Source: Trypethelium eluteriae
Lineage: Eukaryota
NCBI GenBank assembly: GCA_051942245.1
Contig: JAVECL010000031.1
Location: forward strand, 62,001-87,276
Direction of reading: 5' to 3'
DNA length: 25,276 nt
Below the pieces are notes generated by a model. That model saw only the letters and a program-made list of their open reading frames with translations, was not told the DNA's origin and did not search any database. A program made the translations under genes and the position numbers. Below, in pieces: positions 1 through 25,276 of the stretch. The stretch's first letter is position 1. Each line of letters opens with the position of its first letter.

Positions 1-3000
1 CCGCATCGGAACAAGTCTGCAGGAGGTCCTGATCCTTTTCGGCAAGCCGTTATTGATACGATCGTTGGAGAGGTCCAGAATTCTCCCGGAGAAGACCTTT
101 GTGTAATCATGTGCGGCTATAAAGAGCCAATGGAGCGTATGCTTGAAAAAGCCAATCCGGGCCTAGCTCGCCGCTTTCCCCTGGCTGACGCTTTCATGTT
201 CCAAGAGTACAGTCTCGAGCAGCTGGCACAGGTGCTTGACCTCAAATTACAAGCGGAGGGCTTGAAGATGACGGACGACGCAAAATCCGTCGCTCTGGAC
301 ACGCTCAAGCTTGCCAAACAGCAAGCGAATTTTGGCAATGGTGGAGAAGTCATGAACCTTCTCGGTCGCGCGATGGCACGCTACCGGACTCGTTTCGGCG
401 AGATGACCCCTGAGGAGAGGACAGGAATAGTCTGTTTCCAGCCAGTAGACATCGATCCAAAACAGCAGCACAATCCCGACATAGAGAAAGCCATCGAGGA
501 ATGGTTCAAGGAGCTGAATGAGGTCACGGATTCCAAGACCCGCTTCCAATCGCTTGCGCGCCGTGCCGCTGCTATTCGAAAGACTGGCCGAGATCCGGCA
601 TCATCAATGCCATTTCATTTCATGATTAAAGAGACCCAGGGCGCTGATCCAGTGAAGATAGCCAAGAAGATCGCTTGGCTCTACCTTTCGCTCAATTTGC
701 TTTTTACCAACGATGTTGTGGAAGTATCGGCGCAGGATATGATTGCCAGTCATCTCAGCAGATCTGTAGGAGTCGGAAGCAGTGACTTCTTCGGTGTAGA
801 GAGAGAGATGGCATCGTTGAGTCCGTCCGAGATCATCGCAGCGTCTCTCGGAAAGGTTCTGCTCATTCACAACGCCCACTATCTCGCCCAGTCCGGGGAT
901 GATCAGGCCAGCATCTTCGCCAGGAATTTCAGAGCCGAACTTATCGATTCAGCAACCAAGCCTCAATTCGCTTGTAAGGTAGTCATTGTACTTGCAGGGG
1001 ATGAAAGAACGATGGATCGCATGCTCCAAGCAAGTCCTGGGCTTGCGAGCCGGTTTCGAACTCACCTGCGAGTTCAAGGCCTCTCAAGTGAAGCTCATAT
1101 TTCGATGCTCAAGAGCCGCTTAGAAAAGGAAGGCATATCTGTCGCATTGGCAGAAGATGACGAATCGAATATCAAGATCGCGTTCCAAGTGTTGTCCAGG
1201 TCCAAGGAATGGAAAAGCAGCGAGGAAGTACGACTCATTGCTGAGGAACTTGTTGGTGATGCCATAGAAACTAGTGCAGAAACCGATGCACCCTCCCTTG
1301 ACGGATCCGAGATACTCAAATGCCTAAAAAGAAGATTCCCCGGTCAACTACGAAATCCTCCTCCGCGCAAACAGCCACCGGAAGCAACGGCGCCTCTTCC
1401 TAGCCGTATCGAAGACAGTGAACGGCTATTCCGAACACAGACTGTCACTCCAGCGCAAACTTGCGGCAGCATGAAACTAAAGAAATCCATACCTGACAAA
1501 TTTCAGTACCCTAAGTTGCCGGAAGGCCGCTACATACGCATCCTCAGTCTACTGCCGCCTGAGACCCAGGGTCACAGTGAGGATCCTGATAATCCCAAAA
1601 ACCCTAATGTTACCAAAAGCGTTACCAGCTATGAGAAACGCGACGATGTGATCAAGTGTGGCCTTGAGGAACTCCGACTGGGAAACCTGCCTGATCAGCG
1701 ACGGCCCTTCGATGCGATCTCCTACACTTGGGGAACAGAAGACAAGACAGAAATGATCGAATGCAACGGCAAGGCAATCTGGGTTACACCGAACTGCGCG
1801 GGCGCATTGCGCGCCTTGCGTCAACCAGGACGGCCGCGTAAGCTGTGGATTGACGCGATTTGTATTAACCAGGACTCGGACACGGAGCGAGACTCCCAGG
1901 TCTCCCAAATGGGAGACATATATAGGGCCGCGATGCAGGTTTACATCTACCTTGGTGCAGCCTCTCCTGAAACTAATGCAGCGCTGGTTTCCCTGCAAAA
2001 GCTTTCCTGCCTTCGAGGCAGTTGGGGTGACGAACGTGACGTTCGTCAGATCATTCGGTGGAAGCTATTAAAAAAATACCGGGGTAAGTCCCTTCCAGTA
2101 AGAACGTATCCTTGTGTCAAGACTAAGTTTTGGTAGGCGATCTCGAAGCAGTATTCGCCCTAGAGAAAGTCATGAAGCACGAATGGTGGGGAAGAATCTG
2201 GACGTTCCAAGAATTCATACTGGCAGCCCGGCCGGTAATCGTGATTAGCGAGGTGCAATTTCTATGGGATGATTTTTACAGCTTGATGACGGAACGGTTC
2301 CCTGAAACACATCAATCGAAAGGACTACAGGTTCAAAAACGACTGGTATCACACAAGAATGCAGCGGGCCATATGATCATCAAAGATCTCCTCAAAGATC
2401 GGCTCAATGAAGCGGATCAAGTGTACACCTCTGTGCATATGTTTCCCTCATGGTTGGAGATTCTAGACGCGGTCCTGTGTCGTCGGGCTTTCCAAGAAAG
2501 ACTCCGGAACTTGCCTCGCCTCATCTTCATGAGCCATTTCCTACTCAAAGCTCGCAATCGCAACGCAAAGGACCCGAAAGACAAGCTATATGGATTGCAT
2601 GGTCTTTTCAAGGCTTGCGGGTATGATCTACCAGAACCCGATTACTCGAAATCACCACCAGAAATCTATAAGGATATTACATACTTCGTGGTACGGCAGT
2701 CAAAATCATGGTGGATTTTATCGCATCTCTTCAACAAACGCGAAACGTCGACTCTTGACTTGTCATCCTGGGTACCCGATTTCAACACACCCGCTATATG
2801 GCACCAGCGTGCTACCATGCGGTTTTACAACCTCAACGCCCTAGAAGAACGCCTAAAAGGTCAAGAAAAAAAGGCAGTCCGGAAAATTGACGAGTACTTC
2901 CAGCTCGATAGACTTCCGGACGATAGTGTACTCACAATGGCGGTTTTCCTATGGACAGTGACAGAGTCTACCTCCGAAATGCCTTCGAATTCAGTCTTAG

Positions 3001-3785
3001 ACGCTTCCTTTGACCAACGGTTCGAGCAGACAGAATTTGAAGTTCTTGATGAACCTATCGGTGACTTCTTGTTCACACTAGCCAGATGGCTAAAATCGAT
3101 GGAAGACTTCGAGAACAGTCAGGTCGCTAGAGGCATAGCAGATGATTCCATGGAAATAGAAGATACTGGTACAAGAAATCCCCAATCGCGAATAGTCAAA
3201 GCGATTGCTGGCGCCTTTTTCCGGTCATTGCTTAAGCTTGATCCTGGAGCCGAAGCCGAAAAGATGAATAAGGAGATTCAAAGTACTCTTCTGCGGATAC
3301 TCAGCAGTGTCAGAGCTTGCATATCCCCGGATGAGAAGCACAGATGTCGCGCATGTCAGACACCCATTCCTCACAATGGCGACGAAGCGGTAGATCACCT
3401 CAGGCAAAGTGTCCACAGGCAGGACGCGCCTGCTCTCGATTACATGATCCACCTTCTATACGTTTGCGCCGTCGATCATGCTCTATTTCGTACTAGTGCT
3501 ACAGGTCGCTGTCCTGGGCATTTTGGATTCTGCAGGAATCTACCTCGAGCCGGGGATAACATTATACTTTTACCCGGCCTAGCCGATCCCGTGATTGTTC
3601 GACGACATGTGGATCCCGAGGAAAACGTCCCATATTATCGGGTCGTCGGCGTGACTACAGGCATGATAGGACCACCGGTTTTCTACGATCCTAATATGAA
3701 GGACGAAGAGGGATTATGTTTCGGCACATGTCCTGAGCTGGGAAGTGAAGAATCACATGAGGTGCAGAGTTTGTGCTTGAGGTAA
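1..3785 (+). CDS. 5'-partial CbbX/SpoVK-like multi-AAA+ ATPase fused to a C-terminal HET domain; exons <1..2083 and 2137..3785 (1243 aa visible)
   Basis: Frame 1 is open from base 1 (PHRNKSAGGPDPFRQAVIDTIVGEVQNSPGEDLCVIMCGY..NPGLARRFP, later NFGNGGEVMNLL), typical of the AAA modules of fungal CbbX/SpoVK-like tandem-AAA proteins. A degenerate AAA module follows (~560-1330). HET motifs start ~1500: IRILSLLP, FDAISYTWG, LWIDAICINQ, ERDSQVSQMGDIY and, after the intron, WWGRIWTFQE, then the HET-6-like tail AKDPKDKLYGL, PDYSKS, LSSWVPDF. The intron joins ORFs 109..2136 and 2130..3785 in frame. Confidence 0.88.
2084..2136 (+). other. Spliceosomal intron (53 nt, phase 1) inside the HET domain
   Basis: Donor GTAAGT at 2084, branch-like GACTAAG at 2121-2127, acceptor TAG at 2134-2136; splicing gives ..KKYR-G-DLEAVF.. 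and reunites the two halves of the HET domain. Confidence 0.88.
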
Positions 3786-4439
3786 TTAGAGGCGCGGATG
3801 CGATGAAGCTTCTGATGTACTGGACAACACGCAATCACAATGCTTTGAGACATTCAGGCACGAGGTGGCTCATCTTGTGATGTCATGCCTGAGAAAGATC
3901 AACCACCATTACTAGTTGTTCTAACTTAGATGCGAATATGCTCTTGTAGGATAAATACTGATTTGCCCTTGTCTCCGTGCGACAGGACTTGGCGATATCA
4001 AGAAAAAACAAGAAATGTCACCAGTCCTTCTGGGTTAGTAGATCAATATTGGGCAGCTCTCTCTACTTCATTCAAGCGCAGTACCTTAGTTTGCGAGCTG
4101 CTAGGCTTTCGTTTTATAATCACAATGCTCACGAGTGGAAGTCATTTGAGATTTTGTGTTGAAGCTAGGCTTCTCCCTACGGTGTTCATGGCTTGGAGTA
4201 TACAAAAGTGCGTGGGTTGGCCATGAAACATCGCGCTTGGGTTTAGCTGGGAGACTGCGGAAAATAGAGTATAGCCACCGCCCTGAAACGCATCCGGCAC
4301 TTGCACATTCCCCCCACGCGGAGAGCAGCAACCCGCCCAGACTTAACAGCTGCACAGACTGCAGCCCGCTCTTTCCCGCCAGACGCTGCTATTGCTCAAG
4401 CAGCGCGCCAGCCCTCGCGTTCAGAGTCGTGGCATCGGG

Positions 4440-5032: not shown

Positions 5033-6166
5033 TCAATCACTCGTTGAATGAGATGGTATATACAAGACAGATTCGACTTTTTGGGCGTCGAATCGCTTCT
5101 CTAGCAGCCACCCAAACCCTTCAGCAAGATCTTGCATGAAAAGCTCAGAAGTTTTGTAGCCTGGAAACGCGGTCCAAAACCCGTGAGGCATACCGGGATA
5201 CACGTCAATCCGTGTTTGCACACCTGCATCTCTCAGCGCCTGATAGAGGACGAGTCCGTCGTCCCTCAGGGGGTCTCCACCGCAGACCTGCAGGTATGTA
5301 CGAGACAAGCCAACGAATGCTTCCTTGCCATTGAAGGGAGAGTACCACAGCGATGACTTATCAGCAGCATAGTACCCATCTAGCAAATCTTGCTCTGCCG
5401 TGCTGAGACACGGAGCATTCGCATTCTGCTTCCTCGAGAACCACCTGTCTGCATACTTTTTCGGCGGCTCTAGTAAAGGCACAACACTCCAACATCCCGT
5501 GAGGGGAGGATTAAGTGCATTGTCTTTGGCTTGCTGGTTTAGTACAGCAGCTAGATTGCCGCCTGCTGACACCCCTCCAACGACAAATCCGGCACCGGGG
5601 TCGGCTCCTAGCGACTGTGCATTTGCTGCTGCCCATTGCAGCGCGTCCCAGGCATCTTTAGGTCCATACGGATGAAGGTGCTCCGGTGCAAGTCGGTATG
5701 TTGCGCTTAGAACTACGGCATTGAAAAGATGGGCTAGACCCCGCGCGTAAGGGATCATGTGGTCTGCTGTACCTAATGTGAAGCCGCCTCCATGGAATAA
5801 AACCACTAAAGGTCGCGGAGAACCGTCACTATTCTCTCTGTTTCGCTGGACAACCCATGCGGAGGTCTCGTGTTCATCTCTGAGGGGTATCGTCTGTCTA
5901 TTCTGTTCGAGATCTGGCTCTGCCGGGCCAAGTGCTCTTAGCTTAGCATCGTCGTAGCTTTTCATGGCGTTGCGAATCATCCCAACGTCTCGAAAGTCCC
6001 ATCGTGGTGCTTGAGAAGCTTGAACCAACTACGGTCAACATTAGAAGGAGTATTTAGATTTCGGAGTATGACCTGGCACTACCTCTTCGAACTCGGGCAC
6101 TGTATTGCTCAAGCTCTCGATGTTCCGCTTGGTTTGCAACAGCGGGTCGCGGAGTCTGTGCTCCAT
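5033..6166 (-). CDS. Alpha/beta hydrolase fold-3 (HSL-family lipase/esterase); exons 6166..6083 and 6028..5033, 359 aa
   Basis: HGGGF oxyanion motif, YRLAPEH, nucleophile GVSAGG, DPLRDDG (Asp) and GMPHGF (His). Intron 6029-6082 (GTAGTG..CTAAT..TAG) adds the N-terminal exon MEHRLRDPLLQTKRNIESLSNTVPEFEE in frame. Confidence 0.9.
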
Positions 6167-7330: not shown

Positions 7331-7533
7331 ACTTGCACTCACCAGCAATGAATCCCAACTAGCCTCACCAATAAGCTTGTCGGTCGGAGACTTTCATCAA
7401 CGACTGTCTGATTTCTCACCGTTTCGTCTTGCAAGAACGAAAAGCATTGGGTGATTCGGCCTAGAGCCCACAATATATTGCGCCTTATGACCCACATTCT
7501 CGACGCCGCTGATTCCGGTTTGATAGCTTTCCT

Positions 7534-8148
7534 TTACAGCTTGCTCTGCACATTCACATACAGACTCTCCGCACTCGCTAGTACCGCCCCCTTCCCGTCC
7601 CGTATCTCTGCCATCACCCAGTGCTTGCGACCTTGAATCTTGGACTTCCATGCGCAAACCTGTACCGCGCTGGGCAGAGAGACCGGTCGCAGATAGTGCA
7701 CATTGCAATAGACCGTGTACGGCCGTGGCGTAGCTGAGTCCGCAATCATAAGCGAACCAGTCTGCTGGTCTAGCAGCGTAGCAACCAGCCCACCATGCGA
7801 GATGCCAGCATGCCCGCTCGCGCCATTCCCAAGAATATATAACGTCTGAAGCTCCCCAGGCGGTAATGGATCGAGGACGTAAGGAGCGGAAGCCGCCGAG
7901 CCGGACGTTTGAGCTGGGGGTTGCCGTAACTTGTAGAAAGATTGAACACCCAGTAAAGCATCGTGGTCGCGCAGCGTAGAAGACATAAATTTCGAGTCCA
8001 CGTCCGTGGAAGTATGCTGATGCACAGTTTGCACTGGTATAAGACTAGTGTCGTTGAGTAGGCGAGTGCACCAGTCGTAGCTGGAGAACTGTGCCCGCGT
8101 TGAAGCTGATATCTCCTCCCGGACGAGACTTGTGGAAAAGGTGGACAT
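7534..8148 (-). CDS. HotDog-fold (PaaI/THEM4-like) acyl-CoA thioesterase with peroxisomal PTS1, 204 aa
   Basis: GHAGISHGGLVATLLDQ signature, YTVYCNVHYLRPV and GRKHWV strands; C-terminus QSKL; single exon. Confidence 0.88.
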   Translation of the reverse strand: MSTFSTSLVREEISASTRAQFSSYDWCTRLLNDTSLIPVQTVHQHTSTDVDSKFMSSTLRDHDALLGVQSFYKLRQPPAQTSGSAASAPYVLDPLPPGELQTLYILGNGASGHAGISHGGLVATLLDQQTGSLMIADSATPRPYTVYCNVHYLRPVSLPSAVQVCAWKSKIQGRKHWVMAEIRDGKGAVLASAESLYVNVQSKL

Positions 8149-8757: not shown

Positions 8758-10113
8758 TCATGGATATGATGCAGGGTCGATCCACCCAATATTTCCAAAT
8801 TTCCCCGAGAATGGGTACTCAAATACTTTTTCTGGCGTAGAGTATGGCTCATATTGCTGGGAGGTGAGCAATCTTGTAATGTTTGCTTGTACTCGCCCAG
8901 TGAGATTGAATCCTGGCCCGTAGTCCTGATACTCGGCCATAGAGGTCTAAGACGCAGGATTATTAGCATCAACAGGTGCGACGTATTCAATTTCCGATAC
9001 TTACGTTGTAATTGAGACGCGGGTCCGTGGATTGCCATTCGATATATCCAGATGGCTCAATGCTGTCATCAAGATAGCAATTGGCGAAGATCGACCGCAT
9101 CTGTGCGTTCTGATTCCTCATTAGCCCTATCGATCTCATCAAACTCCCCATGCAATTCCTATTCCACTTACCCAAGGTCTTCCCAACGCACACTGTTGCG
9201 CAATGCTCAAACTCGAATTTGCTTTTCTCACCACGCTATCATGCAGATAAACCCCATACTTGTTCACAAAGGTCGTATTCGTGCCCTTCCACGCAGTGAT
9301 TCCACCTCCACATCCCCTCAGTAGCACACTGATACCCTGCGCCCACAATGTACCGAATCCATAGAAGAAGTCTGTCTGCCCAGCCACTGTCCCTCCCTTC
9401 ATGTACACGCTTGCCAGCTTTCCAACATATACCGTGTCCTGATACGAGAAGAACCCAACGCCATAGAAGCCCGCATTAGCGTATGAGATGCTCAAGGCAA
9501 GGGAGGGACCTGCGCTGTAGGGAAGGTATGCGTTCACAAAATCGATATTGTAGGCGCGGAAGTCGGTATTACCGAAGGGCGTGCCCGCAGGTACAGTATT
9601 TCCATCAGGGCCGGCACCCGTGAGAGAAGAGTTGAGGGTTGGGGCGATGGTGAGGGTAGAGGTAAAGGCGTTGTCGAGTGTTCCGGTAGTTGCGGTGCCA
9701 GTGGCTTGGTGCCAGATTACAACCACTCTGTTCTTCGTGCCGGGATTGTCGCCCGCTTGATTGTTGCTGCCATTAGAGCTGTACGGAGAGGGGGTCTGTC
9801 CCAGAAGATACACGGGCCCAGGGCGCGTAATGTTGAGTTGTTCGGTGTAGTTGCCGGGGAGGACGAGGATGGTGTACGGAGTGGTATTATTGGGGATGGA
9901 AAGAATGGCAGACTGTATAGTAGAGAAATGCGCATTCGATGTGGGACCGACGAGGACAGTATTCTCGGGACAACCGGCGAGTGGGTCGGTACTGGGAAGC
10001 TGGCAGGCTGTACGATTAAAGGTTGAGCCGTATGAGGGAAGCTCAGAGGTAGGGAGTGAAGATGTGAGTGCCAAGAATGGAAGAAGACCAAGAATCGTAC
10101 TCCCGGGATACAT
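8758..10113 (-). CDS. Secreted pectin methylesterase (carbohydrate esterase family 8); exons 10113..9172, 9109..9005, 8946..8758, 411 aa
   Basis: Signal peptide MYPGSTILGLLPFLALTSS; CE8 motifs FSTIQSAI, PGNYTEQL, SYQDTVY, QTDFFYG, LGRPW. Introns 9110-9171 and 8947-9004 (both GTAAGT..GCTAAT..AG, phase 0) give GRPW|NAQMRSIFANCYLD..NYN|TSMAEYQDYGPG..WID. Confidence 0.92.
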
Positions 10114-10175
10114 CTTGGCGGACAAGGTAAAAAGTGGATAGGGATGGGAATTCCATACTGGGCAAACTCAATTGC

Positions 10176-10446: not shown

Positions 10447-11833
10447 CACCAATGCGCTACCCAAACATGCGACAATGTATTTCAAACAGAGGGTCAATTC
10501 TAGAAAATGTGGATTTCTTCCGAGTCAATGCTCTGCTGACAGATTAAGTACAGACCCAAGGAATTCATAAAACAGCTCGACATTTACGTCAGAGAATGCG
10601 AGGCTAGTATATCAGCGAGACGAGATCAAGACACATCATACTAGAAGTCCTAGAAATACGGGTTGACCGATGAAGGGAAAACGACCCTTGACCGTCCTTC
10701 CAAATCATCCGTATCTCTGAGATTACGAAGTATGTGCGCCAATTGGCTTAGGAGAGAGATGTGATATTGGTATGTTGAAGCTGCTCTTATTGAAGAACAA
10801 GCACAAGAATCTCTGTCAGAAAAGATAAAGCTGAGGAAATATGTACCATAGTCTAAGTTGTGGCCTTGTCTAAAAGAGTTTTCTCCGTAAGAGTACAATC
10901 TGAGCGAAACAGTTAAGATATATTAGCATACATTCTCCTTCAAAGACTCTAGCCCTTCCTGCTATATCCTAATTTTAGTTGCAGAGGGTGGTTCTTCCCA
11001 GGTAAGGAAGGAATATTGCAGCATTGAACAGTAGTACTCGAGCTACAGAAGCTCTGAGACATGGCTATATGACATGAGATATGATTTCTAGACATTCATC
11101 GATCCTCGAGATGAGCATCGGGGTATTGTTCTGAATTGTTAAAGATTTCACGAAGTGAGCATGGCAGGCTGACATCGAATGTGAACGAGATTTTCTCCAT
11201 AAGGCGTACCCAGGTAGCCTACCCCATGTCGGACCACTTTCAAGCTTGGATGATTGTTGGGACGGAGGGTGTTTTACAGCCGAATTAGTCGTTCAAATTT
11301 CGATTCAATGAGAATTAGGGTGTAGGTAAAGGACAATATTACCGAAGTGCGCAATTGCGAAAGATGGAGTGTTGTGTTTTGCACCGGTCGCGGAGTTATG
11401 GACAAGGTAAGTCCGACCCTAACACTCACTTAGTGCCAAAGATGTTCAGGTCCGGGAAAAGATAACCCGATCATACGTCATTACGGCGGGTGTGGAGCAC
11501 CATTTGCCATGCAAGCCAATTTTCAACTCCATACAAATCTCCACCAATGCGCCCATCTCCACAACGCTTAAATCAAAAAAGTAATACTATCGGCCAATAG
11601 AAAAGACTTCAACGAGTACCACCTTCAAATTATCCTTACCAATTCCTTGTGGTGGTGGAGCCCCCCTGAAATAAAAACTTCATCTCGTCCTCGGCTACGG
11701 CGCCGCATAGGGATAAAGTCCACAGCTTTTGTCCAATAACCTTTCGTAACTTGCAGCGCCGACAGGTTACCTCAGATAGGCACTACAGATCTAGCACGGA
11801 CATCTCTGCGCTCTAAAGAAGCTCCAGTCAATT

Positions 11834-12922
11834 ATGTCTACAAAAGATTCTTCCCTTTACGGCGTTCCCCGGCCTAAGAAGTCAACTGGCAAAGAAATCT
11901 CGTCTTCAACCTCTCTCGCCTTCTCCTCCCACCTCTCCTCTCTAATCGCCTCCAACACGCCAAAAGCGTCCTCGACTGCTACCGCTAACTCCGGTCGCTC
12001 ACGTCCGAAGAAAGACTCAATATTCAATACACACAACAAAGGCACTCTAAAGCGTGCACACGCCGACATCTCTACCTCATCTCCAGCCTTCGAACAAAAA
12101 CACAGCACAAGCGGTGAAGCTCTCGACAGCACAGAATGGCGCCGCGCACAACGACGCATGGAAGACAAGGCCCGCCTATACGCCGCCATGAAACGCGGCG
12201 ACGTCGAAGACTCCGAGGAACGCCACCTCATCGACTTCGACCGAAAATGGGCGGAGCGGGAAGCAAAAGGGCTGGGGTCCGACTCCGAGGTCTCCTCTGA
12301 CGACGACGATAACGCGAGCGACGCCGACGAGGAGGTCGTAGAATACGTCGACGAGTTCGGGCGCACACGACAGGGCACGAAAGCCGAGGTGGCGCGGCAA
12401 GAACGCAACAAGAAGCGCAAGCTCGCAGCCCAGAGCGACGACCCCGATCGCTTCACTGCACGCCCTGCAGCACCGACGAACATCATCTACGGCGACGCGA
12501 TCCAATCCGCGGCCTTTGATCCCGACGACCCGGTTGCGGAGCAGATGGCGGAGCTGGCAGCGAAACGTGATAAGGAGCCGACACCGCCACCCGACGAGCA
12601 CTTTGATGCAAGGAAGGAGGTGCGGACGAAGGGGACGGGTTTCTTCCAGTTTAGTCGGGATGAGGAAGAGAGAAAGGCACAGATGGAGGGGTTGGAAGAG
12701 GAGAGGAGGGAGACGGAAAGGAGGCGGAGGGAAAGGGAGGAGCGGAAGGAGGAAAGAAAGAGGGAAATTGAGGAGAGGCGGAAGAAGATTGGGGAGAAGA
12801 GGGTACGCAAGCAGGCGGATGCATTTCTGGAGGGGTTGGGTGAGGAAATGTTTGGCAACAAGGTGGCGAAGGATGAGGGAAAAGACGGCAGCGATAAAGT
12901 CACTCAGGAGGGAGCTGGTTGA
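11834..12922 (+). CDS. CCDC174: CCDC174/DUF4078-family coiled-coil protein, 362 aa
   Basis: MEDKARLYAAMKRG, LIDFDRKW, VEYVDEFGRTR, HFDARKEVRTKGTGFFQFSRDEEER and an E/R-rich coiled-coil tail; single long ORF. The symbol refers to the metazoan homologue. Confidence 0.82.
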   Translation: MSTKDSSLYGVPRPKKSTGKEISSSTSLAFSSHLSSLIASNTPKASSTATANSGRSRPKKDSIFNTHNKGTLKRAHADISTSSPAFEQKHSTSGEALDSTEWRRAQRRMEDKARLYAAMKRGDVEDSEERHLIDFDRKWAEREAKGLGSDSEVSSDDDDNASDADEEVVEYVDEFGRTRQGTKAEVARQERNKKRKLAAQSDDPDRFTARPAAPTNIIYGDAIQSAAFDPDDPVAEQMAELAAKRDKEPTPPPDEHFDARKEVRTKGTGFFQFSRDEEERKAQMEGLEEERRETERRRREREERKEERKREIEERRKKIGEKRVRKQADAFLEGLGEEMFGNKVAKDEGKDGSDKVTQEGAG

Positions 12923-12951: not shown

Positions 12952-13661
12952 CTATGCTGCTTCTTGCTCTCGGATCCGCTTGCGTACTGCCATGATTGCT
13001 TTACCCAATAGATTCTGACCCCAATCCTTGCGATTGGCCTCAGCAGTCTGGGCGTTGAAACCTACGCCCCATATTCTGTCAGTTGGAGACGCCTCTACAA
13101 GCTCCCTGTCTCCTGTCTCTAGCAAGAGCCGTCTCAGTTGTGGTTGGTCTAGGCAATTCGTAAACTTCCACCAGTTACCTTCTTCAACTATGCGGCTCTT
13201 GTCTGTTGGCTAGTGAGCGTCTAGTCGGTTGATAATTTTCGAGCGAAGAAGGGCAAGATCGGGACAGACTAATAGAAGCTTACTTTGATCCCATATCTTC
13301 CCATCGTATCCCTTCACCTTTCGCCCAAGTGCTTGATGTTTCCTCGGAACCGTGGTCTGCATCATCTGCTCTGTAGCTTCCTAAAAACCATTCAGTATAA
13401 TGCTTTGATATCTCAACTGAAGCTCGAAGGGCAGACGACAGATGAAACAGTACACCAGAAAAGTTTCATGTATACCTTATCCCCAAATAACTTCGCCTTC
13501 TGCGTCATCATCCACATCTCCGCATGATGATATTTGACGTCGTTGTGTTCGAACACGCACTCGTACCATTGTGAAAGGAATCCATACGGTTCCTCAAATT
13601 CCCTCCAAAAGAAGATGGGTCCGCTGTCGCTGCTGCTGAGGATGGTGGGCTGCTGTGCCAT
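12952..13661 (-). CDS. NADAR/YbiA-family (DUF1768) N-glycosidase; exons 13661..13476, 13380..13284, 13202..12952, 177 aa (218 aa if started at 13784)
   Basis: Spliced product contains IFFW..YGFLSQWY, AEMWMMTQKAKLFGD, HQALGRKVKGYDGKIWD, IVEEGNWWKF, LLLETGDRELVEASPTDRIWGVG and WGQNLLGKAIMAVR. Introns 13381-13475 (phase 0) and 13203-13283 (phase 1) have GT..AG ends and keep frame. Exons 2-3 are missing from the ORF track. Confidence 0.92.
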
Positions 13662-14179
13662 GACTATGGTTGACGTAATTGATCTAGATGGACCTGGAAT
13701 TTTTTCTGCAGCAGGCAGTAAGGGTGCGGGAGACCGTAATATGTTCGTGGTGGAGATTAGTCGCTGGATCACTTTCTTATTCATGCAGAGAGTGTGATAT
13801 TTTTTCCGGAAGGTGCAGCTGGTGCAAGGGTGACTGACAAAGTTACCTCTGCACGTCTGTCATGCAGAATTTAGACGCAAGGTATACCACGCAAGAGTAT
13901 GTGTACCTCTTTGAGCGCCCACCTATTTTCGAACTTCGCATCGTCACGAGAGGGAAATAGAAATCGAATACCTATGGTACGCTGTCTATCTTAGTTTCTA
14001 TGAGTCATCTGAATCTACCGAATCCTGAGCAAAATAGCAAAGGCGCGCTCCATTCACCAAGCAAAAGCGCTCGAATTCTGCCTCATCGATAAATGCAAAG
14101 AGCTAAGCGGGCTTACAAAACCAGGCTAGTATGATCAGCGAGATGTGCTAAGCCATTGCGACCTTCAGAGATGATGAAC

Positions 14180-15920
14180 CTATTCATCGTTGAATTTCGG
14201 ATCGCCAAGCTTCTCCACTAGCTCTAGCTGATCCTCAAACTCCTCTTCGTCGTCTGTCTCCGTTTCCATGCAGTCCTCAAAACTTGTCTCGGCATCGTCA
14301 GGATCACCGTTAGAATGTTCACGTTCAGGATTGGTCCCTGTCTCTGGGCAATACTCATTCTTCTCGTCGTCTGCATCGCCATCAGAAGCTGTCTCTTCAT
14401 CGTCAGAGAAATCTAGCTCCCGTAGTCTTTCTCTCTTTTCCGCGACTGCCACAGAAAGACTGATGTCTTTCATCATTATATCCTGTAGCCAACTTGCCGT
14501 AAAACCGCTCTCGATGGCGCTGTGGTCATGTGCAATGTTGTCAGCCAAAAGCTCCCTCATCTCCATGTCAACTCTATCCACGTTATTTCCATCCCTGGGA
14601 TATGTCTCGAGAGCCGCCCGGGCAAGAATTACGATACCGAGGTCAGAATACGGCGTTAGAAGCTTGAGCTTTTCGAGAACGAGGCGCCGTAAGCAGCCAA
14701 GATCTAGTTTAGCTGCCGTCACCCAGACGAATGCACAGTCTTCGATCCATTCCTGACGAATCTTCATGGAATATGGCTGTGGCTCTAGTCGAGGGAATGA
14801 GCCCTGAGGATCGATCAAGCGTGGCGACCAATCACCATTAATTAGGTAGAGTTCCACTTTCTTGAACCGTTTCGGATCTGTGTCATCTAGCCGTAAATGA
14901 ATGCCGTCGGGGGCATCCCAATCTATGCGTTCGCAAAGCTCCGTACTCAGACGATGAGGAGGAAGAGAAAAGACTTTCTCCTCTTTCTCACAACTGACGA
15001 GGACATTAATCATAAGCTCCTCTTGCCCGCGATGTTCTGTTAATGAGGTAGCGGCGCACTGGCTGTTTTCATAGTCATGTTGACCGCTTGAAGAGGAATC
15101 CTGCGCTTTCGACATGGAGCGCGAGCGAATTCTCTCGTTTTCAAGTGCTAAATCATAGAGGTCCTTGTTCTTACTGGATGTTGTTGATGCAAGTGACGGT
15201 AACATCGGAATGTCCTCCTTGCTTGTGGCGTGTACGAAGATCAGCTCATCATCATCCTCTTTCGTAATGTCCATTTCTCCATGGCCCCTGGTGCGATTTG
15301 TTCTCGGTGCACTTGGTCCTGGTTGACAAGCCGCCAGGTCAGGCGCGGACTTTGGCGGCGTCGAGAGTTGTCTTGAACTTGTTGAAGAGGCATCTTCGGG
15401 CAGGGTAAGCTCTGCGCTTCCCCTTGACCCATCGTTCGATTCCCCAGACAATGGACTGGCTAGCCTCTCCCGATTAGGTTGAACTGATCTGTGCTGCGGC
15501 TTCTGAGCGGACCGTCTATCTGGTTGTTCAGAGAGGACTTCTTTCCAGTACTCGATTGGCTGAAATTGCCATGCTAACTCGAAAGCGCGAATTCGTTGCG
15601 GGTCATGCTCAGTATCGCGCCGGATCTCCTCAAGTCCTCCGGGAGGTGGATCAGGGAATTCAACAAGTTTATCATTTTCTGCCCAATGCCTAATTTGGCA
15701 GCTCTCAGTAATAGCTCGCTACAGAATAGAGGGGCATGAGAACTCACAACTGATTAATCCCTATTGCTAGAACTGGGGTCGAGTCGGCGGTGGGCTGCTT
15801 GCCATGCATGAGCTCCGCGGTCATGATGTCATCAATCACAATTACAGGCCAGATGTCGTCAGGTTGGAGGAGCAAAAAAAAGTTCCCTGGTAAGATCGAC
15901 AGACCGCCGGAATCAGACAT
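14180..15920 (-). CDS. Protein with N-terminal PWWP-like domain, disordered linker, BTB/POZ-like domain and acidic tail; exons 15920..15748 and 15689..14180, 560 aa
   Basis: The frame of ORF 14180..15451 stays open up to an acceptor at 15690; intron 15690-15747 (GTGAGT..CTGAG..TAG, phase 2) joins ORF 15744..15926, whose ATG at 15920 is in ACCATG context. PWWP-like: IWPVIVIDD..PVLAIGINQLHWAENDKL..RAFELA..IEYWKEVL. BTB-like: INVLVSCEKEEKVFSL..LDDTDPKRFKKVELYLINGDWSP..FVWVTAAKLDLGCLRRLVLEKLK. Confidence 0.75.
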
Positions 15921-17550: not shown

Positions 17551-19490
17551 ATGCTGAAAATGACGACTCTCGCCAAAGCTTGCTTACCATGTCGATGCAA
17601 ACATCTCAAGTGCAGCGGAGGCGAACCGTGTATGCGGTGCCAATCAGAAGGGGATTCATGCTCCTATGTCGCGTCGCGTCGTGGCTACAAAGGTCCGCGG
17701 AAACGTAGACCGGATACGAAAGACACTCCCAACGACAGAAGATCACACCAAGAATCGCTTGACATGCTTCGAGTGCATTCTCAACCCTCTGCTTCGGATT
17801 CTCCCAGTATACCACCAATGGAAAATGAGTACGACAGAGATCAGTGCACAAAAGTATCAGCCTTTACTGATCAGGAGAATACTTCCAACTACTTTAATGG
17901 TGTGGACAATCTGGGTAATTTGGAGCCATTCACAGCTTTTTACAGCATCTTCTATCCTAACCATCCATTCCTTCTACCCAGAGTTCCTCTAATGCAAATG
18001 CTGGAGAGGAGGCACCTGCCCCATCTGGAACTCGCTATCCAATATATTGGAAGTCATTACATCTCCGCAGCATCCAGTAACGAGTACAGCGATACTTTGA
18101 GTAGCTGTCTAGCCCAGCAAGGTCTTCCTCGAGATGGCTTCATGGTTCAATCATTGCTTTTATTTGCCATGGGCCTACATCTCAGTGCTGAAGTGGAGCG
18201 CAGCGCACGTTATCTGGAATCTGCCATTACCTTGGCTCTGGAACTTGGTATGCATCAACTGAGCTTCGCTCAGCACAACGCTGGAAATAGTCCTATGGCG
18301 GTGGAAAGCTGGAGACGGACCTGGTGGGAACTCTACATAATAGACGGGTTAGCTGCTAGTATGAACCCATCCAGATTATTCCGCACCTGGGGCGTATCGA
18401 GCGATGTTTATTTGCCATGTGAAGACGTCTCATACTTTTCGGAGGTGAGTAGTCTTACTCGAGCAGCAAAAGCGACATAGAATTGTTTCGATCTGACAAA
18501 GTAATCAGGATATCCCTACGCCGCGCGCCATTACTGAGTACGATGATTCTGCTTTTTTGGGTACCGACATGGCATTCTCCTCTTATACATATCTTATCGA
18601 TTCTATTCGGTGTCTGGGAAGAGTCTTAGCGGTGAACCAAACAAGCCGAACTAAGGCCGATGGCTATTCCAATCATGCTGCGTTCGATATGGCCGATAAC
18701 TCCCTGATGAATTGGAGGCTTCACCTGCCTACGAGTAAAAAAGAAATCCTTGACCGCCATCGCCATATCGACAGGCTTTTATTCAGAGCTTATATGACTA
18801 TCAACACGTAAGCTTTTTCCATTGATTTACGGACATGCGATGCCGTAAGTCGAGAATACTAACTTTGATACCAGAGCAACAATCTTACTGCACAGACCTT
18901 GGTCTGAATTATGTTTTGAGGCTGTTCAGAACATCAAGACTTGCGTTCCTGACTTGAAGCCTGTACGAACAACCCGGATTCCGGAATATCACACCGCAAA
19001 AGCACAACAAGCGGCGAATCATTGTACACATCTGGCGAGACTTCCATCTTCCACTCAAAGCCATTCGCCCTTTCTTGCGTGCTGTATGGTGATGGCCTCG
19101 ATGGTTCACCTTTCACTTTGGTCATTTATGGTTCCCGATGGTGAAGATACCTCGATAAAAGAAGAGATTCGTCTCGAAATTGGCGTACTCAAATCATTAG
19201 GGGAACTCTGGCCTATAGCAAAGATGGCGTTGGGCCAGGTCCAAAGCGTGGCCCAGGAAATGCTAACTTCAAAGAGAGCACTGAGTATCCATTATTGGAA
19301 TTCAATGACTGGCAATCAGATCCTTCAAAATTTGATCGAAGAGGTTGATACCTTGGGGCCTGACTCGTCGGAGTATGTACCGTTCTCCAATATTCCCAGC
19401 CTTTCGAACGCAGTAGATGTGAACTCGCATCATTCGTCTGGGCCGTTTACTACAACAATAGAGCCAGGCCAATACCTCCATCAAACTTAG
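17551..19490 (+). CDS. Zn(II)2Cys6 transcription factor with fungal TF middle-homology domain; exons 17551..18444, 18509..18807, 18875..19490, 602 aa
   Basis: ACLPCRCKHLKCSGGEPCMRCQSEGDSC binuclear cluster followed by SRRG; FYPNHPFLLP, ESWRRTWWELY, LPCED, FSSYTYLI, ILLHRPWS, HSPFLAC. Introns 18445-18508 (GTGAGT..CTGAC..CAG) and 18808-18874 (GTAAGC..TACTAAC..CAG) keep frame. Start could be 17551 or 17560. Confidence 0.92.
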
Positions 19491-23100: not shown

Positions 23101-23636
23101 ACATGTAAGCTCGCAGCCGGGTGCTATTGGTCCTCAAACTCTCTTTTCCCGGTCGAGAGGTCGACTCGAAACCAGCATCGAGCTGCCAGTGATCGCTTGG
23201 TTGAATGTGGTGTGGCCCCAATTAGATGAAAGGCGCTGTCGATCCTTCGTCTCCGCCGTCCGACATCAGCCAGCAACCTGAACCCTGGCCTCACTCGCTC
23301 TGGGCCCCTGAGGATAAGAAATAGATCCCAAACACTGTGCCATCGGCCCCCGCTCGTTCGCTTTCTCTCTTTGTTATCGTCATCTACCAAGTCACGTCTT
23401 CTACTGGAGGTCCGTCTCTCCTTTATGTTAATCTACACGACCAACTCGCCATTAGGGGGCTCCCGGAACCCGTTCAACAGTCGCTAGAGTACGCGAATCC
23501 TCCGAAGGCACGGACAGCAAAACAACAACTATATGATTTTCATCCAGCCGTGCCAGCACCGAAATCTTTTCACCTACTGAACACTCAAATCCGACCTGGA
23601 ACCGTCAAGCAACCTCTACAACTCTGCGGTTTGAAA

Positions 23637-24164
23637 ATGCTTCCCGCATCGCTTCTCCTACTCTCCGCCCTCATCCTTAACCCTATCATCGTCCTCTCTA
23701 AGCCGCTTAAGTTTGGCGACGCAATCGCCGCGACTCACTACCCCAAACAACGACCAATGCACTCCTCTCTCGATCATCGATCACTCTCCTGCGGTTACCA
23801 CGGCAAAATCTCTGCTGCACATCTTGATGATGTACGAAGCGCGCTAGTGGAGATGGAAAACTTTGGCGGGAAGGTTTGCACTCCGGGCCGGGGGGAGACA
23901 CGAATGTGCGACCGATGGACTCAGACGACCTGTGTCATGCTGTTGAATGGCGAGGATCACGACAGATGCAGCTTTGTAACCGAGGTCAACCAATTCGTTG
24001 GTGACTTGATCGAACGGCAAAAAGAATGTGGGAAAGGAGAACAGCCAACACTACAAGACAGCGTCTTTGATATGAAGTATACCATCGGACACCGGAATTG
24101 GAGGCCAAAGCTAGAAGATGAGTGGGGTTGGGTTGCAACTTCGGGAACAGGATCATCGTCATAA
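23637..24164 (+). CDS. Small secreted cysteine-rich (effector-like) protein, 175 aa
   Basis: ATG at 23637 (AAAATG) inside ORF 23337..24164; hydrophobic signal MLPASLLLLSALILNPIIVLS, pro-region ending LDHR, then a domain with six Cys. Confidence 0.75.
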   Translation: MLPASLLLLSALILNPIIVLSKPLKFGDAIAATHYPKQRPMHSSLDHRSLSCGYHGKISAAHLDDVRSALVEMENFGGKVCTPGRGETRMCDRWTQTTCVMLLNGEDHDRCSFVTEVNQFVGDLIERQKECGKGEQPTLQDSVFDMKYTIGHRNWRPKLEDEWGWVATSGTGSSS

Positions 24165-24510: not shown

Positions 24511-25276
24511 TCACAGCTTACTACCTTTCTTCATTTCTGCATCAAGTATCATCCCTTGGGGACCTCCTCGACTCGCATCATCTGTCCACAGGAAATCTTC
24601 TGGTTGCGAGTCTGACCAGCACCACTTGTGCTTGAATTCCTCTGGTGGCTGTCTCAGTACACAGTCGACTATCTTGTCGCCCAGCACTGGTAACATTTTG
24701 AATCCATGTCCAGAGCCGCCGGTAGCCAAGAACAACCCTTCAAAATCTGGATGGTATGTGATCAGGTAGTCGCCTTTCGGTGTGTCACAATACCAGCACA
24801 ACCTCGTTTTCGAAAATGGTCTTTCCGCCAATTCGGGTACCATGCGTCTCAACGTCTCTCTACATGCTTGCTCAGCTTCTCTTGGCGCCCAGAAACCCGG
24901 ATCCTCTATCGTCGTTCTCGGCAAGCTTACGGTAATCCCATCAGCCTGCCTTCTCTTCCTCGGATCTGGATGTGGTATTCGTACCGGGTTCGCATAGCCG
25001 AACCCATGTCTTGCGATCTTCAGATGGCCTTGACTCGACGGTACGACAAACATCCCTCGTGTCAGATTCAACGGGACCGGCACGTTCGCAAATTTCCGCT
25101 GTTGTTCTTCGTTCAAGTCCACATACGCCAGTATCTGCCCCGTCGCGCTTGCTCTTCCCCTCAAATCTACGACTCTTCCACTCCACGCCCCCATCGCCAC
25201 CACCGTCAGTTCAGCCCGCACCTCCTCCCCCGACGCCAGCTTCGCACCCAACATCCTTGCTCCATCCCCCGTATAC
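24511..25276 (-). CDS. 5'-partial FAD-dependent oxidase of the sarcosine/L-pipecolate/fructosyl-amine oxidase family, with PTS1
   Basis: VVAMGAWS, ATGQILAY, LKIARHGFGY, RLCWYCDTP (Cys at the position of covalent FAD attachment in this family), ATGGSGHGFKMLPVLG; ends GSKL. Frame is open to the window edge. Confidence 0.9.
   Translation of the reverse strand, partial: YTGDGARMLGAKLASGEEVRAELTVVAMGAWSGRVVDLRGRASATGQILAYVDLNEEQQRKFANVPVPLNLTRGMFVVPSSQGHLKIARHGFGYANPVRIPHPDPRKRRQADGITVSLPRTTIEDPGFWAPREAEQACRETLRRMVPELAERPFSKTRLCWYCDTPKGDYLITYHPDFEGLFLATGGSGHGFKMLPVLGDKIVDCVLRQPPEEFKHKWCWSDSQPEDFLWTDDASRGGPQGMILDAEMKKGSKL

Follow-up and report, generated by a model that had tools for sequence, protein, structure and literature searches.

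A single spliced gene joins an AAA+ cassette to HET

The first 3,785 bases of a 25,276-nucleotide stretch of Trypethelium eluteriae DNA (contig JAVECL010000031.1, positions 62,001 to 87,276; the whole stretch is called the window here) hold the 3′ three quarters, 1,243 codons, of a single intact gene on the plus strand, which joins an AAA+ ATPase cassette to a HET domain and its tail. One plus-strand frame is open from base 1 to base 2136 (711 codons), running from the first ATPase module (AAA1) through a linker into HET, and a second is open over 2127..3785. At 2084..2136 lies a predicted intron of 53 nucleotides, typical of fungi, with a GTAAGT donor at 2084, CTAAG near 2123 and TAG at 2134–2136. 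Once it is excised, the two frames meet in a glycine codon split as G/GC, and the product is 1,243 amino acids long with a single terminal stop. Because the match to the Pfam HET profile (PF06985) continues on both sides of the intron, with exon A residues 570–668 matching profile positions 1–104 (86.9 bits, cut-off 22.5) and exon B residues 7–25 matching positions 128–146, the predicted splice restores one HET domain. Exon A (1..2083), whose 5′ end lies outside the window, thus carries the end of AAA1, its lid, a second module (AAA2), the linker and about two thirds of HET, from its start; exon B (2137..3785, stop codon at 3783–3785) carries the last HET block and a HET-6-like tail of about 520 amino acids. 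All features of the gene described below are on the plus strand.

The gene is collinear with P0001, a 1,700-amino-acid protein that its source assigns to Trypethelium subeluteriae. The spliced product aligns to P0001 residues 458–1700 over all 1,243 of its residues, at 85.8% identity and with no gaps. The initial annotation of this DNA, made from sequence without database searches, had proposed one spliced gene cut in two by the open-reading-frame (ORF) track, and the single frame to 2136, the intron and the gap-free alignment bear this out. It had also raised an assembly join near 1400–1500, which we rejected, as the frame is continuous there and P0001 aligns without gaps; a pseudogene was likewise rejected, for lack of stops and frameshifts. 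On these sequence grounds, either artefact is very unlikely. Base composition is uniform across 1..4000. In other genomes, exon-A-like and exon-B-like ORFs are called separately on contigs of equal length in eight cases, which suggests that the same intron splits the gene elsewhere.

The source record's own model at this locus is P0091 (444 amino acids), residues 216–444 of which are 100% identical to window residues 1–229. It terminates at window residue 229 (window 1–687), although the frame continues for 482 more codons, and no GT splice donor follows its end point. The deposited annotation probably mis-splits the AAA-HET gene.

The ATPase cassette is of the SpoVK/CbbX/EccA type

The part of AAA1 downstream of Walker B occupies 1..270, as judged from motif comparison and an NCBIfam match. 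It includes the motifs VIMCGY (97–126) and NPGLARRF (151–180), which we take to be the sensor-1 and arginine-finger regions. An AAA_lid_6 lid follows at 274..402 (residues 92–134; PF17866, E = 5e-7, 30.1 bits, cut-off 24.3). AAA2, at 541..1350, is a degenerate SpoVK/EccA-type module, delimited by a second NCBIfam stretch and by sequence matches to solved structures; it holds a Walker A remnant (619–663), a Walker B remnant (850–885) and an SPGLASRF motif (1030–1062). The linker to HET, which differs in length among homologues, spans 1351..1500 without a stop codon, and the Pro-rich segment that the initial annotation had placed at about 1350–1420 was located at 1351–1404.

The NCBIfam models SpoVK, CbbX and EccA each match window 1–1350 in two stretches, and the two halves of the ATPase part are similar to each other (BLASTP E = 5e-6). 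Together with the AAA_lid_6 match, these results show that the tandem CbbX/SpoVK-type modules are real. P0091 adds 215 residues upstream of the window, which hold AAA1 with an intact Walker A (GPPGTGKT) and Walker B (IDEAY). This fragment, which covers AAA1, matches NCBIfam models (SpoVK 2e-43, EccA 1e-41, CbbX 3e-38) and solved structures, of which the best are EccA1 (3e-32) and CbbX (2e-28). The NCBIfam scores fall far below the equivalog cut-offs (148 bits against 423 for SpoVK; 132 and 143 against 459 and 467 for CbbX and EccA), so the ATPase part is not an orthologue of any of the three. From its sequence, we assign the cassette to the SpoVK/CbbX/EccA clade of classical AAA+ proteins. Pfam detected no NACHT or NB-ARC domain in the window protein or in P0001–P0005, in line with the earlier description of an ATPase unlike that of the NOD-like receptors (NLRs). 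In P0006, a single nSTAND3 match on the AAA module was sub-threshold (21.5 bits, cut-off 27.2).

AAA2 has lost its catalytic motifs, with KETQGADPVK at the Walker A position and IHNAH at the Walker B position, and P0001 shows the same loss of both. On its own, AAA2 matched no Pfam AAA family, and its best solved-structure matches were EccA1 (E = 1e-6) and CbbX (E = 4e-3). Many other family members (P0002, P0003, P0005, P0006, P0097, P0174 and P0232) keep GxxGxGKT and DE in this module, and it is partly eroded in several more. In AAA1, Walker B is present in all 17 sequences that cover it and Walker A in 11 of 13, the other two being fragmentary gene calls; this pattern of motifs marks AAA1 as the putative constant engine of the family. 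Thus, the clade and tandem layout claimed at the outset hold, but the window contains only the end of AAA1 with its lid, and AAA2 is degenerate.

The missing 5′ part could be read from P0001 and from the identical fragment P0091. As had been expected, the N-terminal part lies to the left of the window: the orthologue has about 457 further residues upstream, comprising a leader, a P-loop-less region that is the positional homologue of an initial AAA module, and the core of AAA1 that binds ATP. In P0001–P0004, about 320–340 residues precede AAA1, and these matched no Pfam family and contain no Walker A. Their nature becomes clearer from P0043 and other relatives that have three modules and three Walker A motifs, the first module of P0043 being residues 1283–1525. 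By BLASTP, P0006 residues 178–974 align in one piece to P0043 residues 1283–2083, and P0003 residues 230–906 align to P0043 residues 1467–2153. Because these alignments run across the P0043 modules, the N-terminal region of the HET family appears to occupy the position of the first AAA module, its P-loop lost. Two of the three module positions are therefore degenerate in this gene, with Walker A and B intact only in AAA1. The suggestion that the N terminus might be a sensor did not survive, as the leader and AAA-like region of the orthologues contain no recognizable sensor domain.

We also observed a second AAA-HET subfamily (P0005, P0006, P0112, P0232 and P0097). P0006 begins with a C-x7-C-x5-C-x3-H motif, and P0112 is named a C3H1-type domain-containing protein by its source; from its sequence, this CCCH-type N terminus could be an RNA-binding head. 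Both subfamilies occur in Trypethelium, in different species (P0001 in T. subeluteriae and P0232 in T. eluteriae).

A whole HET-6-type protein forms the C-terminal half

The intron-interrupted HET domain spans 1531..2216, as defined by PF06985 and by its motif blocks. Alignment places its first strand at 1531–1554, followed by a lineage-specific insertion of 30 amino acids (1555–1644). The three conserved HET blocks are xxALSYxWG, WIDAxCINQ and WxxRxWTxQE. All three are intact in the product, reading FDAISYTWG (1708–1734), LWIDAICINQDS (1843–1878) and WWGRIWTFQEF (2184–2216), and with PF06985 matched on both sides of the intron they confirm that the HET domain is complete, as first described.

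The tail (2217..3782) carries the motifs DPKDKLYGL (2571–2597), SWVPDF (2766–2783) and CxxC-x6-H-x7-H (3345–3398), and has a beta-rich end, GDxIxLLPG...PVIVRR...YRVVGV (3552–3653), recognized by motif comparison and in models. By BLASTP, it is collinear with the stand-alone HET protein P0254 (698 amino acids) over the end of HET, DxxDKxYGL, SWVPDF and the C-terminal GDxxxLLPG...P...R, and the Atlas grouped it with clusters named Het-6_barrel (score 0.98, 13 of 30 hits). These two results indicate that HET and tail together represent a whole HET-6-type protein. A search with exon B (548 residues) returned 26 protein matches: the best 17, at 32–47% identity, are specific to the AAA-HET family and are ORFs of about 500–560 amino acids or slightly longer models, and the other nine are HET proteins of the ordinary kind, for each of which PF06985 and/or PF26639 is precomputed. 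The HET-6-like tail of the initial annotation is thereby upheld, with distant matches to PF26639 proteins. The tail went unmatched in our local Pfam scan, but so did P0252 and P0254, which have precomputed PF26639, so the scan may lack that model. The CxxC-x6-H-x7-H motif is kept in the window protein, in P0001–P0004 and in the consensus of exon-B-like homologues, and is absent from the second subfamily; by its spacing of residues it may be a zinc site.

Predicted structures gave individually weak TIR-type signals for the HET region. An AlphaFold2 model of the tail alone was mediocre (predicted local distance difference test (pLDDT) 63, predicted template modelling score (pTM) 0.62); Foldseek found no matches to it in the PDB at E ≤ 0.001, and in a wide VIA-align search the highest Z was 5.2, confined to short helical stretches, so that the tail could be assigned no fold. 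A model of HET plus tail was made from the family member P0247 rather than from the window protein (pLDDT 78, pTM 0.80). Foldseek again returned no matches at E ≤ 0.001, and in VIA-align 25 of the 50 listed matches, all on the HET region, were TIR (12 by title), ThsB (4), SEFIR (2) or nucleoside deoxyribosyltransferase (7) chains; we take the ThsB chains to be TIR proteins. The best TIR match had Z 5.8, with a root-mean-square deviation of 2.5 Å over 86 aligned residues. HET has been reported to be sufficient to kill and to be remotely related to TIR (PMC9815663, PMC10197012); the TIR-type fold matches of the model, weak as they are, accord with that relation and fall short of proof.

AAA-HET proteins recur in fungi and form one clade

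The fusion is present in other species, as the initial annotation would lead one to expect. Among long homologues, 6 of 87 have both HET and AAA, and Pfam confirmed all six; 13 of the best 150 representatives have HET, with Pfam confirmation for all 11 that were newly scanned; and 10 of 44 near-length homologues have precomputed PF06985 together with an AAA family. With local profiles, both parts were found in 26 of 296 fetched proteins. These predicted proteins occur in Dothideomycetes, Sordariomycetes and lichen fungi; the named carriers are Trypethelium, Bathelium, Viridothelium, Neocucurbitaria, Cercophora, Meristemomyces and Microdochium. They make up a small, conserved family in filamentous ascomycetes. 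The family build, as judged from sequence comparison, is a protein of about 1,700 amino acids consisting of a leader, a P-loop-less AAA-like region, AAA1, AAA2, a variable linker and a complete HET-6-type protein.

To place these cassettes, we built a midpoint-rooted FastTree phylogeny (single run) of 187 of 232 sequences found by phmmer at E ≤ 1e-20, retaining those whose best match covered at least 330 query residues. A single clade of 26 tips (support 0.999) contained all 16 HET-labelled tips; among the ten others, two have HET by a later scan and eight end within 55 residues past the cassette. As all HET-labelled tips lie in this clade, the family most likely arose once, when a gene for a SpoVK/CbbX/EccA-type AAA+ cassette became joined to the gene of a stand-alone HET protein. 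Of the 33 tips in the sister clade (support 0.877), 30 are cassette-only and three have the architecture cassette-TPR_10-CHAT. These three proteins (P0034, P0056 and P0262; about 1,800 amino acids, one of the three from a Fusarium species) combine TPR_10 repeats with a C-terminal CHAT caspase-like domain, an architecture of which we found no description in the literature searched. Predicted domain content therefore shows the cassette carrying different C-terminal death or protease-type modules, and the swapping of C-terminal effectors that had been suggested as worth looking for does occur on related cassettes. Proteins in which the cassette is fused to a superfamily 1 (SF1) helicase, named NFX1-type or ZNFX1-like by some sources, account for 75 of the 187 sequences and lie outside both the HET clade and its sister. 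One further protein, P0110 (3,438 amino acids), has a sub-threshold match to a URGCP-like GTPase (39.7 bits, cut-off 55) far upstream of its AAA cassette.

Constraint and genomic neighbourhood

Identity to P0001 is unevenly distributed along the protein. It reaches 91% in both the HET core (168 of 185 residues) and the tail (462 of 508), 86% in the AAA1 end plus lid (155 of 180) and 78% in AAA2 (211 of 270), and is lowest in the linker (29 of 50; 58%), which aligns without gaps. By this measure, the HET-6-like half is the most constrained, with AAA2 and the linker relaxed but maintained.

Downstream, the window encodes an Abhydrolase_3 protein (5033–6028, minus strand), a pectinesterase-like protein (9139–10167, minus), a DUF4078 protein (11795–12922, plus), a NADAR fragment (13413–13859, minus), a Zn2Cys6 transcription factor (17551–18480, plus) and a flavin adenine dinucleotide (FAD) oxidoreductase (24511–25275, minus). 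Four further frames match no Pfam family at E ≤ 0.001: a 512-codon frame at 14180–15718 (minus) and those at 7397–8044 (minus), 18849–19490 (plus) and 23325–24164 (plus).

Relation to known systems

The architecture invites comparison with several characterized or described groups. Fungal NLRs of the HET-NACHT-WD40 type (Podospora HET-E and HET-D, as well as HET-R) likewise place HET and a P-loop ATPase of the AAA+ superclass on one polypeptide, and presumably share the logic of nucleotide-controlled assembly that activates HET. They differ from the AAA-HET protein in three respects: here the ATPase is a SpoVK/CbbX/EccA-type tandem cassette with no STAND domain by Pfam; HET is C-terminal to the ATPase, whereas in the NLRs it is N-terminal; and repeat sensors of the WD40, TPR or ANK kind are absent, with HET retaining its own HET-6-like tail. 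Stand-alone HET proteins of the HET-6, TOL and PIN-C type, as represented by P0254, are collinear with HET plus tail over their whole length, but the AAA-HET proteins have a cassette and linker of about 970 amino acids (judged from P0001) fused in front, and their tails form a distinct subgroup, those of subfamily A carrying the CxxC...H...H motif.

On the ATPase side, the bacterial AAA+ chaperones CbbX, SpoVK and EccA are the best sequence matches and share the AAA_lid_6 lid and the intact Walker A and B of AAA1; the AAA-HET modules differ in being tandem, degenerate at two of three positions, eukaryotic and fused to HET. A group of SF1-helicase proteins with triple AAA modules (about 2,300 amino acids; for example, Aspergillus nidulans AN7246, which is P0043) has a homologous cassette over about 700–800 amino acids at 34–36% identity, but with three Walker A motifs, an N-terminal helicase and no HET. 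We presume these to be the same group as the eukaryotic SF1 RNA helicase representatives of the clade in the literature. The cassette-TPR-CHAT fusions are the closest cassette relatives with another C-terminal domain (40–41% identity to HET-family cassettes); they share the order of ATPase first and death or protease-type domain last, but where the AAA-HET proteins have HET and tail, they have TPR_10 repeats followed by CHAT, a caspase-like protease. Eukaryotic clade members with an SF1 RNA helicase domain are mentioned in PMC10659427.

In bacterial conflict systems, chaperone-type AAA+ proteins, some of them with two modules of which the first is inactive, have been proposed to act as effector thresholds (PMC7159879). 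The MoxR-vWA ternary, FtsH-type double-AAA and TRIP13-HORMA systems resemble the AAA-HET protein in this concept only, that is, in using a non-STAND AAA+ protein as the threshold. In the FtsH-type component, the first of the two modules is inactive and the second active (PMC7159879), as the P-loop-less region is followed by active AAA1 here. The bacterial systems belong to other AAA+ clades, are encoded by several genes and lack HET; the analogy is functional, and we do not claim homology.

A candidate ATP-controlled HET switch

We found no description of the AAA-HET architecture in the accessible full text of the literature searched, including PMC9815663, PMC10197012, PMC12881547, PMC13449251, PMC8195603, PMC7159879, PMC10659427 and PMC2275199 (supplementary tables, which could list it, were outside this scope), and the initial annotation had not recognized it as characterized either. 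Database entries for such proteins exist under generic names. One review notes that there has been no recent evolutionary analysis of HET proteins (PMC10197012).

Everything that we say of the AAA-HET protein beyond its anatomy, we infer. The reading we favour, with a probability of roughly 0.55, is that proteins of this family are ATP-controlled, oligomeric HET switches for cell death or non-self responses that descend from the single fusion of cassette and HET. ATP binding and hydrolysis by AAA1 would control the assembly or the conformation of an oligomer, by analogy with ring-forming relatives and with NLRs; CbbX and EccA form rings. Such an oligomer would gather, release or unmask the TIR-like HET death domains. 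Inactive modules serve as scaffold in other tandem AAA proteins, and the dead AAA modules might do so here, with the tail as the likeliest ligand-facing or regulatory part. A chaperone-type AAA+ protein would then stand where fungal NLRs use a STAND ATPase. Clustering of HET by an AAA+ ring, an immune function and depletion of nicotinamide adenine dinucleotide (NAD) by HET are conceivable.

Several observations weigh against a switch of this kind. With AAA2 dead in this gene, the presumed machine lacks one of its parts, and the TIR fold matches are individually weak, all with Z below 8, the common range of the tool. The two Trypethelium-like orthologues show no hypervariable block between them, unlike many immune sensors. 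The neighbouring genes in window 5033–25275 are ordinary fungal genes, with no NLR or HET cluster and no transfer RNA among them. The depositor's annotation, in the form of P0091, lacks the fusion. We found no published experiment on any family member in the literature searched, and according to a 2025 review neither the activity nor the structure of HET proteins has been determined (PMC12881547). Characterized members of the SpoVK/CbbX/EccA clade are client-specific chaperones rather than signalling hubs, and for its relatives in eukaryotes a role in RNA processing is predicted (PMC10659427).

The last two points are also the starting point of the principal alternative, in which the protein is a housekeeping remodeller: the cassette would work as a SpoVK/CbbX-like chaperone, perhaps on RNA–protein complexes, and HET plus tail would target or regulate it with no role in death. 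The frequency of SF1-helicase fusions among the cassette sequences, the CCCH zinc-finger motif at the start of some HET-fused paralogues (P0006, and P0112 by its C3H1-type name) and the position of HET plus tail as the most conserved part would all suit such a protein. We nevertheless consider it unlikely, as HET is reported to be sufficient to kill fungal cells (PMC10197012, PMC12881547) and its three blocks are intact here, CHAT, likewise a domain of the death or protease type, takes the same C-terminal position in the sister clade, and the patchy taxonomic spread is unlike that of a housekeeping gene.

Two minor alternatives fare less well. The gene might be a polymorphic heterokaryon-incompatibility (het) locus whose alleles trigger death after hyphal fusion, given that its tail is of the HET-6 type and that in Neurospora and Cryphonectria incompatibility is determined by HET proteins other than NLRs, among them TOL, PIN-C and HET-6 (PMC10197012). 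This is improbable: only a small fraction of HET genes act as het loci (in Podospora, 5 of 125; PMC10197012), and HET plus tail is 91% identical between the two species and free of both indels and hypervariable blocks. That AAA and HET are transcribed as separate units, or that the locus is a product of an assembly join or a pseudogene in decay, is the least credible explanation of all, for although ORF callers divide the locus at the intron, the P0091 model runs no further than window residue 229 and AAA2 has lost its catalytic motifs, one 711-codon frame spans AAA1, linker and the start of HET in DNA of uniform composition, no splice donor lies where P0091 ends, the alignment to the 1,700-amino-acid orthologue is free of stops, frameshifts and gaps, and 26 predicted proteins from several fungal classes have both parts.

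Building on the favoured reading of an ATP-controlled HET switch, a broader idea can be offered tentatively. In filamentous fungi, the family could stand for a second class of death or immune proteins, gated by nucleotide but not of the STAND type, in which the cassette, with one live module and dead flanks, would be an interchangeable assembly or threshold unit for C-terminal killers (HET-6-type or TPR-CHAT), and the ZNFX1-like helicase fusions would provide a link to nucleic-acid sensing. We regard this wider scheme as possible but doubtful.

Implications for HET biology

HET ranks with the most abundant death domains in fungi and with those that are least understood, and to our knowledge it has so far been discussed only by itself or as an effector at the N terminus of STAND NLRs. 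Were the AAA-HET protein a plain chaperone, the finding would amount to an unusual domain combination. As it stands, with a whole HET-6-type protein mounted on an AAA+ cassette of the chaperone type, the activation of HET can be studied in a natural setting that is switchable by ATP, and the natural variants with live and dead AAA2 within the family provide a ready comparison. By analogy, the AAA-HET protein may be an unrecognized kind of fungal death or immune switch, and its architecture suggests that fungi, like bacteria, may gate effectors with classical AAA+ chaperones as well as with STAND ATPases.

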